A DNA stretch of 8,369 nucleotides from a virus (lineage: Duplodnaviria > Heunggongvirae > Uroviricota > Caudoviricetes), in IMG/VR virus record IMGVR_UViG_3300039329_000118. One strand, given 5' to 3'. The number at the start of each line of letters is the position of its first letter. The stretch's first letter is position 1. The translations under genes were made by a program, and so were the position numbers. Under the pieces are notes generated by a model. It was not told where the DNA came from and did no database searches. It saw nothing but the letters and a program-made list of their open reading frames with translations. Below are positions 2,530 to 8,369 of this stretch, piece after piece.

Positions 2530-3600
2530 ATGGCTAACGCCTGGCTCAGATTATGGCATGACATGCCAAATGACCCTAAGTGGCGAACAATTGCCAGGGT
2601 GTCAGGGCAGCCAATTGCAACAGTGATGGCAGTGTATATCCACCTCCTGGTGAGTGCGTCACGAAATGTCACGCGAGGTCACATTGATGTCACGACAGAA
2701 GATTTGGCAAGTGCGCTCGACGTGACAGAAGAGGTAATTGATTCAATTTTGCAGACGATGCAGGGGCGGGTACTTGATGGTGATTTAATCACTGGATGGG
2801 AAAAACGCCAGGTGCTTAAAGAGGACAACGGCAATATTTCGCAAACCGCAAAATCTCCTGCAGAGCGCAAGAGGGCGCAGCGAGAGAGGGAAAGAAAGCG
2901 GGAACAAAATGGCGATTGTCACGGCGCGTCACGAAATGTCACGCACATGTCACGACGAGTCACGACAGATAAAGATACAGATAAAGATACAGATCAAGAA
3001 GATCAAAACACTATGGTCCATGGCGTAAAAAACGCCACGAACCAGGCAGGGGATGTTCAGACCGTCAATCCTGGTCAGCCAGCAGGCACGACACCGGAAG
3101 CCGATTCAGCGTATGCGCTGAAAGCCGATTCGGGCGCTGTGCAGCAGGTGATGACCCCAAGGCCGGAGCAATCACACCAACTGCAGCAGCCTGAAGCCGA
3201 TTCCGCCATTCAGCGGAAAGCCGATCGGGTAGTCCCGGAAAACACCGGGCTGTCTGTGGGACGAGTGGATTATCCGGATGCGTTCGAACAGGTCTGGCGG
3301 GAGTACCCGTTGCGTGCCGGAGCAAACCCGAAGAAATCCGCTTTCAGTGCCTGGAAGGCCAGATTACGCGAGGGGGTGCCACCAGAGGCCATGCTGGATG
3401 GCGTGAGGCGTTACGCAAGATACTTGGCGGCTACCGGGAAAACGGGAACGGAATTTGTTCAGCGAGCGACGACGTTTTTTGGACCGGACCGGAATTTTGA
3501 GAACCCCTGGTTGCTCCCGGTAAGCGGCACGAACAACCAGCGTTGTGTGAATCATATTTCTGAACCGGATAACGAAATTCCGCCGGGCTTCAGGGGGTAA
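2530..3600 (+). CDS. phage replication initiation protein (O-like / replisome organiser) with internal origin repeats
   Basis: ORF-track 2524..3600 (GTG start). I prefer the ATG at 2530 with AGAGG 6 nt upstream. Sits in the replication-module position after cro/YdaT-like genes. Contains two iteron clusters and an AT-rich tandem repeat within the coding sequence, giving repeated peptide motifs (SRNVT...VTT twice, DKDTDKDTD). The C-terminal ~120 aa is a distinct region of unknown fold. Confidence 0.65.
   Translation: MANAWLRLWHDMPNDPKWRTIARVSGQPIATVMAVYIHLLVSASRNVTRGHIDVTTEDLASALDVTEEVIDSILQTMQGRVLDGDLITGWEKRQVLKEDNGNISQTAKSPAERKRAQRERERKREQNGDCHGASRNVTHMSRRVTTDKDTDKDTDQEDQNTMVHGVKNATNQAGDVQTVNPGQPAGTTPEADSAYALKADSGAVQQVMTPRPEQSHQLQQPEADSAIQRKADRVVPENTGLSVGRVDYPDAFEQVWREYPLRAGANPKKSAFSAWKARLREGVPPEAMLDGVRRYARYLAATGKTGTEFVQRATTFFGPDRNFENPWLLPVSGTNNQRCVNHISEPDNEIPPGFRG
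2656..2694. repeat. iteron cluster A: four GTCAC(G/A) repeats at 10-11 bp phasing
   Basis: GTCACG at 2658, 2668, 2689 and GTCACA at 2678 (start positions). The 19-mer GCGTCACGAAATGTCACGC (2656..2674) recurs exactly at 2926..2944. Confidence 0.55.
2918..3010. repeat. iteron cluster B (five GTCACG repeats) plus adjacent AT-rich tandem repeat: candidate origin of replication
   Basis: GTCACG starting at 2918, 2928, 2938, 2949, 2959 (10-11 bp phasing), followed by two perfect tandem copies of GATAAAGATACA (2968..2979, 2980..2991) and a degenerate third. This mirrors the iterons-plus-AT-rich layout of lambda ori inside gene O. Confidence 0.55.
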
Positions 3601-3640: not shown

Positions 3641-4063
3641 GTGGCAAAAGTTTTTACACAAGAAGAGCGGGAAAAAATTAAAGGACAGGTTGTTGAACTC
3701 GTACGCCAGAGTGGGCGTGAGACGTTACGGCAACTGGAAGTCAAGACAGGTGCGACAAGATATCTGATGAGCGTTCTCGCAAGAGAGCTGGTTGCCAGCG
3801 GCGATGTATACAACTCTGGTTACGGGTTATTCCCGTCTGAACAGGCGCGTAAGGACTGGCAAAATGCCCGTAAAAAGCTCTCAAGGGCAAAGCTGAAGAA
3901 ACCATCTGCGGTTGATCCGGACCTTATCTGGCCATTACCTGACGGAGAAATACGTCGCTACGACAGGCGTCAGAACATAATCTGTCGCGAGTGCCGGAAG
4001 AGTGAAGTTATGCAGCGCATATTGTCGTTTTATCAGGGTGATGTTCGGTATTTATTGAAGTGA
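3641..4063 (+). CDS. hypothetical protein downstream of the replication gene
   Basis: 140-aa ORF with GTG start and AGGAGG SD (3631..3636), 40 nt after the replication gene stop. Contains one CxxC (CRECRK) near the C-terminus. Far too small to be a DnaC/P-like helicase loader. Function unknown. Confidence 0.5.
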   Translation: MAKVFTQEEREKIKGQVVELVRQSGRETLRQLEVKTGATRYLMSVLARELVASGDVYNSGYGLFPSEQARKDWQNARKKLSRAKLKKPSAVDPDLIWPLPDGEIRRYDRRQNIICRECRKSEVMQRILSFYQGDVRYLLK

Positions 4064-5163: not shown

Positions 5164-5643
5164 TAGAAGGTTAGCTTGCGTCGGACTTGGCGTATTTAAA
5201 GAAGTGCTGGTGGTGACTGGTTGTTGTGTTCCATTTCTACAGAACAAAATCACAGAAACTATACCCAATAGTTGTATCTCATCAATGATGAGACAGCCTC
5301 ATATTTATCAGAACTGGTGTACGTCCAATACAGGAGGTTGTCGTGCTGGTTCTCAAATGTGCGCTGGCTATTGCTGCTGTAATGGCAATTTATTGCCTTG
5401 CTGTTGTTCTTATGGATCGCCTTTCTGATTGATTTTATATTGGCGAGGTGACGTGAGTTAAGTAGAATTGCTGCGGGTGCTTGAGGCTATCTGTCTCAGG
5501 CATGAACACCAAAGGCAGATAGAGAAAAGCCCCAGTTAACATTACGCGTCCTGCAAGACGCTTAACATTAATCTGAGGCTCAATCTATGAACGGCAAATC
5601 TAGGTTAGCCTCTTACGTGCCGAAAGGCAAGGAGAAGCAGGCT

Positions 5644-5799
5644 ATGAAGCAGCAAAAGGCGATGTTAATCGCCCTGATCGTCATCTGTTTAACCGTCATT
5701 GTGACGGCACTGGTAACGAGGAAAGACCTCTGCGAGGTACGAATCCGAACCGGCCAGACGGAGGTCGCTGTCTTCACAGCTTACGAACCTGAGGAGTAA
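5644..5799 (+). CDS. hokD: Hok/Gef family type I toxin (HokD/RelF-like small membrane peptide)
   Basis: Translation MKQQKAMLIALIVICLTVIVTALVTRKDLCEVRIRTGQTEVAVFTAYEPEE (51 aa) has the Hok/Gef layout: hydrophobic transmembrane segment then conserved C-terminal tail. It matches my recollection of E. coli HokD/RelF closely; the symbol is from memory. SD AAGGAG at 5629..5634. The ORF track's 70-aa frame (from ATG 5587) is an in-frame upstream extension. Confidence 0.85.
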   Translation: MKQQKAMLIALIVICLTVIVTALVTRKDLCEVRIRTGQTEVAVFTAYEPEE

Positions 5800-5965: not shown

Positions 5966-6580
5966 ATGCAGAATTTATCTCAACAGTTGTTAGAAGCATA
6001 TGACAAGGAGTGCCGCAAAGAGCTTTCGATCGCGTTAGCACAGGCTTATCTTCATTCGCATATGAAGGCAAAAGAGTTTGGTTCTTTTTGGGCTCAAGCA
6101 CAGTCATATTTGCGCTGGTTTTATGCCGATGCATTGCTTGAGAATGCGGCTAAGCGTGTGGGGCTGGATTTTGAAGTCGGTAGCAATGCTGCTAAAAATT
6201 GTAAACACATTGCGATTCACTCGAACAACTGGAAAATGACGGCACATCATTTATCGGGTAATGCGCCACTTCCTAAGCAGGCATTGTATAGAGCTGTTTA
6301 CGCTAATCAAAATTATGAATTGAATTTTGGGGATGAAAATGCCGACTCCCTGGATGGGAGAGCGTCTGGTGGACATGTTTATATGTTACATGATGGCAGT
6401 AATCAGCACTTGTCCAAACTGAATTTAACTGTTCCTTCTTCGGATAATTACGGGATTCTTTATACTGAGTCTTTACCAATTATGACGATGGTAGAAGTTG
6501 AAGCAGAAAATGTGGATTCTGAGATTGAAGATAAAATCAAGATTCTTACCGAACAAATAATTAAATCACAGCAATCATGA
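5966..6580 (+). CDS. hypothetical protein, first gene of the two-gene operon (candidate effector/toxin partner of the HTH-peptidase)
   Basis: 204-aa ORF, AT-rich. Stop overlaps the next gene's start (ATGA at 6577..6580), implying translational coupling. No motif I can recognise; acidic C-terminal tail. Confidence 0.7.
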   Translation: MQNLSQQLLEAYDKECRKELSIALAQAYLHSHMKAKEFGSFWAQAQSYLRWFYADALLENAAKRVGLDFEVGSNAAKNCKHIAIHSNNWKMTAHHLSGNAPLPKQALYRAVYANQNYELNFGDENADSLDGRASGGHVYMLHDGSNQHLSKLNLTVPSSDNYGILYTESLPIMTMVEVEAENVDSEIEDKIKILTEQIIKSQQS

Positions 6581-7722
6581 GCATGAATATCGCACAAACA
6601 CCATTTACTGATAAATCGTTTAATCCTCGTCGCCTTGAGGAGGCAAGAGAGGCAAAAGGGTTGACGATGGCTGAACTTGCCAGAGTGCTCAATATTTCAA
6701 GACAAGCTATTTCGTCATTTGAGAAGGGGTTGAAGTCTCCCTCTGCTGATACACTTTCTGCAATAGCCAAGGTGTTAGGATTTCCAGAACGATTTTTCTT
6801 AGCCTCCAGTGCTTCTCCATCTCTGGAGGGGGCGATTCATTTTAGAAGTCGTTCAACTGCGACCAAAAAGGCTCGAGTTACAGGGAAAACACGTGGGCGT
6901 TGGGCGGCATTAATATTGGATGAATGTCTAAAATATGCTCAATTACCAGATGTGGTTCTGCCTGAATTCGATATTATTGATTTTGAGGTTCTGTCTCTAT
7001 CTGATATTGAGGATATGTCCACCCAATTAAGGCGTTTTTGGGGGTTAGGTGATGGTCCAATACTCAATTTAACTAGACTTGTTGAAAATAAAGGAATCGT
7101 GGTTTCTCATTTACCTTCTGGTGAGAAAGTTGATGCCTTTTCGTTCTGGCATAATGGGCGGCCTTTAATTATGTTAGATAGCTCGAAGACGGCTGTTCGC
7201 ATGCGATTTAGTCTTGCTCATGAACTTGGCCATTTAATTATGCATAGGGCAGTGGAGGATGACTACCTGAATGATAAAGAATTATTCGACCTAGTGGAGT
7301 TGCAGGCCGATTATTTTGCCTCCAGCTTTTTAATGCCAGCCACGACTTTCGGGCGTGAATTTTATAGTCCAAATTTATCAGCGTTAGAACGATTAAAACT
7401 ACGTTGGATTACATCTATCGGTAGTATTGCCATGAGGAGTCATAGCCTTAAGTTAATTAGCGATAATCAGAAAAGCTATATATTTAAGCAATTAGCGCCA
7501 TTCCATCGTAGGGAGCCGTTAGATGATGCAATCCCAAAAGAAGAGCCTGAGTTACTTAATAAGTTACTTTTACTTCTTGATAAGCATTCAATCATAAAGG
7601 TAACTGAGTTAACTGATATCTTTGCTCTTCCTTTAAATGAGTTATCTGCAATTACACGATTTAAAGAATCAGATATGATTCATTCTGACAATGTTATTTC
7701 ATTTACCATAAAACAAAAATAA
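6577..7722 (+). CDS. XRE-family HTH fused to an ImmA/IrrE-type (COG2856 / M78-like) zinc metallopeptidase domain
   Basis: 381-aa ORF. N-terminal Cro/C1-type HTH (LTMAELARVLNISRQAISSFEKG). Central HEXXH zinc-binding motif (SLAHELGHLIMH) with the downstream acidic/aromatic segment (ELQADYFASSFLMP) typical of ImmA/IrrE peptidases. Coupled to the upstream gene and followed by a terminator. Confidence 0.85.
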   Translation: MSMNIAQTPFTDKSFNPRRLEEAREAKGLTMAELARVLNISRQAISSFEKGLKSPSADTLSAIAKVLGFPERFFLASSASPSLEGAIHFRSRSTATKKARVTGKTRGRWAALILDECLKYAQLPDVVLPEFDIIDFEVLSLSDIEDMSTQLRRFWGLGDGPILNLTRLVENKGIVVSHLPSGEKVDAFSFWHNGRPLIMLDSSKTAVRMRFSLAHELGHLIMHRAVEDDYLNDKELFDLVELQADYFASSFLMPATTFGREFYSPNLSALERLKLRWITSIGSIAMRSHSLKLISDNQKSYIFKQLAPFHRREPLDDAIPKEEPELLNKLLLLLDKHSIIKVTELTDIFALPLNELSAITRFKESDMIHSDNVISFTIKQK

Positions 7723-8108: not shown

Positions 8109-8369
8109 GTGCGGGTATTACTTCGACCTGTTCTGGTACCGGAACTCGGTCTGGTTATCGTTAAGCCAGGCCGTGAATCAATGTCAGCATTCCATAACGG
8201 CAGAATACTGGTGGAGCCGGAACCAAAAAGCATGCGTAATCTGCCGTCCGGGGTCGTTCCTGCCGCTCGCCAGCCGCTGGTGGAAGACAAAACATTGCTG
8301 CCGTTTTTCAGTAACGCACGGGTGATTCGTGCTGCTGGTGGTGCTGGTGCATTGTCTGACTGGCTGTTG
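8109..8369 (+). CDS. 5' part of a hypothetical protein running off the window end (partial)
   Basis: Frame open from 8034 to the window end. First start codon is GTG at 8109, preceded by GGAGG (8100..8104). Translation begins VRVLLRPVLVPELGLVIVKPG... Not in the ORF track because it has no stop in the window. Identity unknown. Confidence 0.3.
   Translation, partial: MRVLLRPVLVPELGLVIVKPGRESMSAFHNGRILVEPEPKSMRNLPSGVVPAARQPLVEDKTLLPFFSNARVIRAAGGAGALSDWLL

Follow-up and report, generated by a model that had tools for sequence, protein, structure and literature searches.

The stretch of DNA analysed here, hereafter called the window, is an 8,369-nucleotide (nt) sequence of the Caudoviricetes (IMG/VR record IMGVR_UViG_3300039329_000118). 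The question raised by its replication initiator gene (2530..3600, + strand, 356 amino acids) is whether the repeats carried within the coding sequence form the origin at which the encoded protein acts. Two repeat arrays, an A-rich tract and an inverted repeat were all found inside this one open reading frame (ORF), which begins with the ATG at 2530 and is preceded by GAGG. The region is probably, at about 0.8, the vegetative replication origin of a lambdoid Escherichia coli prophage, embedded in its own initiator gene, and, as judged from sequence comparison, selection acts on the two-array layout at the level of the DNA throughout a large protein family. An earlier reading made from the letters of the DNA (the sequence-only reading) had already proposed such an origin, with iterons followed by an AT-rich unwinding tract, and the proposal was strongly supported by the conserved layout, by the synonymous sites, by the different cores of the protein groups and by the family-wide presence of the tract.

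Phased repeat arrays within the initiator gene

Array 1 (2658..2694, + strand) was found to contain four GTCAC(G/A) copies at 2658, 2668, 2678 (GTCACA) and 2689 with a spacing of 10, 10 and 11 base pairs (bp), followed by the presence of five GTCACG copies at 2918, 2928, 2938, 2949 and 2959 in array 2 (2918..2964, + strand) with a spacing of 10, 10, 11 and 10 bp. A lone inverted GTCACG copy was found at 2721..2726 (- strand), 33 bp beyond array 1; this copy and the inverted repeat at 3014-3044 are features beyond those of the sequence-only reading. Outside both arrays and the inverted copy, just two GTCACR copies were found in about 8 kb. A period-10 array was reported at 2917-2967 by Tandem Repeats Finder. 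The repeat unit is direct, 10-11 bp in length, and was found to contain an asymmetric 7-8 bp core, TGTCACG(C/A), without dyad symmetry. With this spacing, the copies of both arrays fall on one face of the helix. The exact 19-mer GCGTCACGAAATGTCACGC is present at 2656..2674 and at 2926..2944 (+ strand), which agrees with the duplication first noticed between the clusters. Its copies are 270 bp apart and in the same frame, and the peptide ASRNVT is consequently repeated in the protein.

The hexamer count of the whole window was not significant when taken alone (12 observed against 6.4 expected); the significance comes from the clustering, the phasing and the frame analysis of the hexamers. The GTCACR hexamers were found to be distributed over all three reading frames and therefore do not represent a peptide repeat. 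As the null model, 5000 synonymous-codon permutations of the initiator gene were used, in which the protein sequence was unchanged. The permuted genes contained a mean of 2.4 and a maximum of 7 GTCACR hexamers, whereas 9 were observed, and a mean of 1.2 and a maximum of 4 phased pairs, whereas 7 were observed; neither value was reached in any permutation (0/5000 in both cases). The nine copies in two clusters with 10-11 bp phasing, as first described from the letters, were thus borne out by the coordinates and by the permutation test.

Array 1 codes for residues 43-56 (ASRNVTRGHIDVTT), which form the last part of helix 29-45 and the loop that leads into the helix-turn-helix. The inverted copy codes for D-V-T, where the putative recognition helix has its N-cap, and array 2 codes for residues 130-146, where the disordered linker begins. 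The expectation that the repeats are translated within a linker was found to hold for array 2 and the A-rich tract and to fail for array 1, which lies in a loop of the folded N-terminal domain (N-domain).

The last iteron is directly followed, on its 3′ side, by a purine-rich and AT-rich tract (2965..3013, + strand), the proposed DNA unwinding element, which was found to contain 71% A+T and 71% purine, with 46% A+T in the whole gene. The 45-mer with the highest A+T content in the gene begins at 2969, and the 12-mer ACAGATAAAGAT is present in 2.9 copies at 2965-2999 (Tandem Repeats Finder) with a 6-bp sub-period. The claim of AT-rich tandem repeats immediately after the second cluster was confirmed by these coordinates. 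Two GATC (Dam) sites were found within the tract, at 2992 and 3001. GATC was often seen in the tract of enteric-host homologues (e.g. AAAGATCTAAA) and several Pseudomonas and Bordetella homologues contained no GATC; the sites may link the tract to Dam/SeqA control of unwinding. Immediately 3′ of the tract, the inverted repeat TGGTCCATGGCGT-aaaaa-ACGCCACGAACCA (3014..3044, no strand assigned) was found to exceed shuffled sequences as a single-strand DNA fold, with z = -2.9 on the + strand and z = -4.95 on the - strand. The GC skew of the whole window rose monotonically through the region and was uninformative, and the promoter scan remained at chance level.

Conservation of the arrays among homologous genes

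The homologues were collected by tblastn and by a scan of one representative genome per GTDB species. Homologues of the N-domain were found in Enterobacterales, Aeromonas, Pseudomonas, Bordetella, Chromobacterium, Burkholderiales, Sphingomonadales, Xanthomonadales and cyanophages. An array was counted where the first 700 nt of the gene contained at least 3 same-strand 5-mer copies spaced 9-12 bp apart. Phased arrays were found in 61/77 (79%) of the diverged homologous genes, whereas only 2/724 (0.3%) of the same-locus control blocks contained them. The positions of the arrays were conserved, with array 1 at about nt 129-160 and array 2 at about nt 350-440 of the gene, and the mean spacing was 10.2 bp.

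The conservation of third codon positions reached 97% in the array-1 cores and 55% elsewhere (Mann-Whitney p 1.7e-5) in 22 GTCACG-class homologues, all of them less than 93% identical in nucleotides, and the fourfold-degenerate third positions in the cores were near-invariant over these 22 diverged species. Phage homologues from Aeromonas and Pseudomonas were found to have the inverted copy in the same place, with a third-position conservation of 77%, which is weaker than that of the direct copies.

The repeat core was found to vary by protein group. GTCACG was the commonest core, ranging from phages of E. coli, Aeromonas, Pseudomonas and Bordetella to Xanthomonadales, and GAACGC and GCAACG were found in other groups, with the layout retained under different cores at 31-48% protein identity. 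The Ralstonia phage Firinga protein (38% identical), for example, contained GCAACG arrays at nt 130-182 and 401-431. The comparison of iterons across homologous replication genes, which had been put forward as a check, gave a core that differs between protein groups within a layout that is kept. Array 1 had been read as an accessory or duplicated site. Since it is kept at gene nt ~129-160 in the Ralstonia phage protein with another core, it belongs to the conserved layout as an integral part and the description as a duplicate was not upheld; its role could still be accessory.

The core class was found to be independent of host taxonomy, as Pseudomonas elements contained either GTCACG or GAACGC. 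The GTCACG arrays co-occurred with a DUF977 gene (window), a DnaC-like gene (pAEv1818) or a primase-helicase gene (P7869) downstream, and DnaC-like or DnaB-like genes were present with some of the homologues. The C-terminal domains (C-domains) also varied among the proteins with GTCACG arrays, and the N-domain is the sole constant partner of the GTCACG arrays.

The 50 nt past the last iteron were found to be AT-enriched in 61/63 loci (0.61 against 0.43; Wilcoxon p 3e-12), and the tract across the loci was about 71% purine with 6-bp periodic AGATAA, AGATAC or AGAGAA units. A short hairpin 20-60 nt past the last iteron was modestly enriched (score 6.0 against 5.1 in the controls, p 8e-9). The stem sequences of these hairpins were variable and their 4-nt loops were often TGAC, TGGC or TAAC. 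A second recurrent hairpin form, with the loop TCACTACGTTC, was found in unrelated hosts (L095, L099, L132 and L005).

The distances from the first copy of array 1 to the first copy of array 2 were found to cluster near 250, 260, 270 and 281 bp (period 10, n = 49), which suggests that the two arrays share a helical register, the value of R = 0.51 being inflated by sequence relatedness. In the Escherichia albertii homologue (L091), array 1 (gene nt 129-181) was found to be longer by 21 nt, equal to two extra GTCAC repeats; the insertion adds 7 loop residues (TCHGVSL) and is both a multiple of the codon and about two helical turns. Concerted evolution of the two arrays was considered and set aside, as the spacers differ in other genomes, the 19-mer of the window excepted.

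In a Serratia metagenome-assembled genome (L125) and in Pantoea (L138), a GIY-YIG nuclease-like motif (YVYFV…GIS.NPWAR) at about nt 300-560 was found to replace the linker together with array 2. The replacing segment contained CTACGTAG-type repeats and could have been inserted, in the manner of a homing endonuclease, where the origin would lie. Two circular 50.9-kb records of clinical P. aeruginosa described as plasmids (L172, CP137943.1; and CP124671.1) were found to be complete phage genomes, both with a GTCACG-class module and a DnaB-like helicase gene. They are likely to represent replicative or episomal phage DNA caught in the assembly, which is only a hint of autonomous replication. Plasmid records were also considered as evidence for a minimal replicon and were rejected, as each record with this gene was a large plasmid, a chromosome-sized record with a wrong label or a phage genome.

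The initiator protein, the proposed mechanism and the rival explanations

The initiator was assigned to phrog_3729, 'replication initiation protein' (E 4e-255), and is named 'phage replisome organizer' in RefSeq/NCBI. It was found to contain an N-domain (about residues 1-97), followed by a basic helix (110-127), a disordered linker (about 134-245), a helical C-domain (249-317) and a DnaT-like tail (333-356). Residues from about 10 to 95 were modelled with confidence by AlphaFold2 (predicted local distance difference test above 90), with helices at 29-45, 56-63 and 67-77, a loop at 46-55 and a hairpin wing at 78-88. The top Foldseek matches of this N-domain in the PDB were all winged-helix DNA binders (MarR, ArsR, CAP, MntR and a plasmid initiator), which gives a hint of the winged-helix-like fold class, short of a call of membership.

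No family was found for the N-domain by sequence searches of Pfam, NCBIfam and the PDB. PF04492 (Phage_rep_O) did not match the initiator even at E <= 10, and hhalign gave a probability of 0.07% for the alignment of lambda O with the N-domain and of 0.3% for SPP1 G38P, that is, no detectable homology. PF09681 (Phage_rep_org_N) remained below its gathering threshold (16.6 bits, the cut-off being 23.3; E 0.008), with an alignment that spans positions 1-119 of the 121-position model, and weak matches were found to the 'replisome organizer' families phrog_4880 (6e-6) and phrog_5968 (2e-4). These matches suggest a remote relative at best.

The last 24 residues (…SEPDNEIPPGFRG; residues 333-356, window 3526-3597, GTNNQRCVNHISEPDNEIPPGFRG) were found to be nearly identical to the C-terminal end of DnaT (PDB 6aep, 2ru8 and 9zbt; E 0.003). 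The DnaT DNA-binding domain PF17948 was not matched in the window protein and was present in full in 19/59 N-domain homologues. No P-, DnaC- or DnaB-like gene was found anywhere in the window. The DnaT-like tail, together with the absence of any P- or DnaC-like gene, suggests that the phage borrows a replication-restart interface of the host. The initiator is, from its pattern of matches, a mosaic of exchangeable N modules (origin-specific) and C modules (host-interface). The Stx phages Shigella phage 75/02 Stx and phiSTEC1589-Stx1c were found to match 3122-3600 only, corresponding to the C-terminal half at 82% nucleotide identity, which is fused to a different N-terminal half in these phages; in the phages mEp460 and HannyBb, the last ~160 nt of the initiator gene and no more were in common.

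The core classes, the constant partnership with the arrays and the winged-helix-like model point indirectly to the cognate N-domain as the probable binder of the arrays. Under the proposed mechanism, the N-domain would bind every ~10-bp repeat as a unit and would form a phased protein array on both clusters, and the clusters, about 260 bp apart and apparently in register, could come together in a single complex by looping or wrapping. Strain from this complex, together with rightward transcription from a cro-side promoter, would open the adjacent A-rich tract; early transcription from the cro/cII-like genes would cross the origin in the rightward direction, as in lambda. The host helicase would then be recruited via the C-terminal part of the initiator, with the DnaT-like tail standing in for the missing P-type loader. 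A primosome-type route of helicase loading is plausible because of this tail, of the PF17948 domain in the homologues and of the docking of the DnaT C-terminal domain on PriA, a domain which also filaments on single-stranded DNA (PMC13377028).

Within one clade, where GTCACG-class and GAACGC-class proteins are 64% identical, the residues that discriminate the two classes were found only at 45-56, 65-67 and 100-105, of which 45-56 is encoded by array 1 and 65-67 by the inverted copy, followed by 100-105 just after the KRED motif. The peptide with the class-specific residues may follow passively from the DNA motif, or it may belong to the recognition surface. It is an unlikely, though not negligible, proposal that the array 1 peptide takes part in repeat recognition and that array 1 is for this reason kept in the coding sequence of the DNA-binding domain. 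A second proposal of this kind, independent of the first, is that the DnaT-like tail and the hairpin beside the unwinding tract assemble a PriA-type primosome. If the former is true, the binding site and its reader would share nucleotides and a change of the iteron would alter the reader simultaneously; if the latter is true, a dedicated P or DnaC loader would have been replaced at the origin.

Several points weigh against the reading of the region as an origin bound by its own initiator. About 20% of the homologues contained no clear arrays. The A+T content of the tract is only moderately high, and high-GC hosts have a GA-rich tract in place of an AT-rich one. The Foldseek fold matches in the PDB were not significant (best E 0.3), and the step of helicase recruitment has the 24-residue tail match (E 0.003) as its sole basis. 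The co-variation of core and protein could reflect linkage alone, because the repeats sit inside the gene. Amino-acid constraint on ASRNVTRGH could explain a part of the array 1 conservation, against which the third-position data argue. The Eru papers, finally, state that nothing is known of the replication proteins of the non-lambda Stx phages (PMC8951638).

Among the rival explanations, the arrays may be sites for the product of the gene without being an origin, the true origin lying elsewhere in the prophage. Such sites could act in autoregulation as a transcriptional roadblock, in copy-number control by pairing of the arrays, or in fork arrest as for SPP1 oriR, at which gp38 is proposed to stall forks (PMC6316719), and the apparent register of two arrays about 260 bp apart does resemble handcuffing or looping control elements. 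After array 2, nevertheless, there comes a purine/AT-rich tract and in most cases a hairpin, in an order and at a position in the gene that match ori lambda, a layout which a pure operator would not need, and control and origin functions are compatible with each other and not mutually exclusive; this explanation was considered quite unlikely. The repeats may instead be sites for another protein, a host factor or a neighbouring phage product, with the gene as a mere carrier. Their location inside the gene would account for co-inheritance without any binding by the gene's own product, whereas the independence of the core class from host taxonomy speaks against a host factor, and the neighbouring genes and the C-domains change while the GTCACG arrays stay with the N-domain, their only constant partner and one of a DNA-binding-type fold. 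The chance of this explanation is slim.

It may also be supposed that the repeats have no function at the DNA level and merely result from a peptide that is itself repeated or constrained, or from slippage in replication, for which the repeated ASRNVT from the 19-mer duplicate and the low-complexity DKDTDKDTD encoded by the A-rich tract could be cited. The spread of the hexamers over three frames, the failure of all 5000 synonymous permutations to reach the observed counts, the near-invariant fourfold-degenerate core positions in 22 species and the retention of the layout with different cores at 31-48% identity are contrary to it. This supposition is scarcely credible and is effectively refuted by the third-position and permutation results. 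The origin embedded in the initiator gene is retained as the preferred reading.

Gene neighbourhood and comparison with known origins

Upstream of the initiator gene, the window was found to contain a CI/DicA-like repressor gene (1248-1667, - strand), a cro/YdaS-like gene (1768-2049, + strand) and a cII/YdaT-like gene (2033-2458, + strand), and the initiator gene is next followed by a DUF977/LygF/'Ren-like exclusion protein' gene (3641..4063, + strand). The order cro, cII-like, rep and ren-like corresponds to the early-right operon of lambda minus P. The temperate coliphages Tritos, Evi and 204576 are among those that were found to carry near-identical DNA, and the initiator gene was present at a coverage of at least 80% in 1647/5426 complete E. 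coli genomes. Farther to the right, sok antitoxin RNA (Rfam RF01794, 110 bits) was found at 5475-5649 (+ strand), where phage Tritos annotates a HokD toxin, and this part is, by its sequence matches, a hok/sok type I toxin-antitoxin module of the prophage. An ORF of 381 amino acids (6577-7722, + strand) was found to contain an XRE-type helix-turn-helix fused to an ImmA/IrrE (Peptidase_M78) domain and is preceded by a 204-amino acid ORF of unknown function (5966-6580). At the right edge of the window (8329-8350), GTGCTG/GTGCTGCTG was found as a short tandem repeat.

The principle of an origin inside its initiator gene is textbook knowledge, and the origin of this initiator family itself is without description in the searchable literature; no description of it was found there, either under GTCACG iterons, DnaT-like phage proteins and oriJ of Rac or in the Eru papers. 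The relatives of the initiator are spread over the Proteobacteria and the gene is common among E. coli prophages. The origin call supplies a testable fragment and a sequence-only annotation of origins for hundreds of prophages, and GTCACG, GAACGC and GCAACG are natural initiator/iteron specificity classes for swaps. A further question that arises from it is by what route a lambdoid module that lacks a P-type loader brings in the host helicase.

That an initiator gene can contain its own origin is established for lambda and Stx phages (PMC7466680), as well as for gene 38 of SPP1 (PMC6316719); 933W and P27 are lambdoid Stx phages with such an origin in gene O. In ori lambda, four iterons at gene nt 349-433 are followed by ACACAAAAGACACTATTACAAAAGAAAAAAGAAAAGA and then by the palindrome GTCAGAGAATTC-TGGC-GAATCCTCTGAC (about 1165-1192 of the lambda sequence, L173). 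The same order of iterons, A-rich purine-biased tract and palindrome was found in the window, in which array 2 occupies nt 389-435 of the gene and the inverted repeat at 3014-3044 holds the position of the lambda palindrome, and the TGGC loop of this palindrome is also among the loops often seen in the hairpins of the homologous loci. In both cases the middle of the initiator gene holds the origin (the proposed one in the window), translation of the repeats gives a linker and the module order is cro, cII-like, initiator and ren-like. In Stx phages, two extra iterons add 13 amino acids to O (PMC7466680), to which the lengthening of the E. albertii homologue by two iterons and 7 amino acids is similar.

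The differences from lambda are as clear. The window protein is not detectably homologous to O. The lambda iterons are 18-19 bp in length with dyad symmetry and are each bound by an O dimer, whereas the window contains direct units of 10-11 bp. A second conserved array is present in the window about 260 bp upstream, in the region coding for the DNA-binding domain, and the window contains no P gene, whereas its initiator carries the DnaT-like tail at the C-terminus. As neither O homology nor a P-like gene was found, the lambda analogy drawn in the sequence-only reading is one of the mode of working and not of membership.

SPP1 oriL contains direct repeats together with an unwinding element rich in AT inside gene 38, and G38P binds two separate regions (PMC6316719). 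The window likewise contains direct repeats along with a tract rich in AT inside an organizer gene, whereas the second SPP1 site, oriR, is about 13 kb away and the second array of the window is 260 bp away in the same gene; SPP1 also encodes its own loader and helicase (gp39 and gp40), neither of which is encoded by the window. With DnaT of the PriA-PriB-DnaT restart pathway, the window protein shares the near-identical 24-residue tail and an acidic linker (PMC13377028), whereas DnaT is without a sequence-specific N-domain and without an origin, both of which are predicted for the window protein. The initiator is a demonstrated member of neither the O nor the G38P family, and its origin, by analogy, works in the manner of ori lambda and of SPP1.

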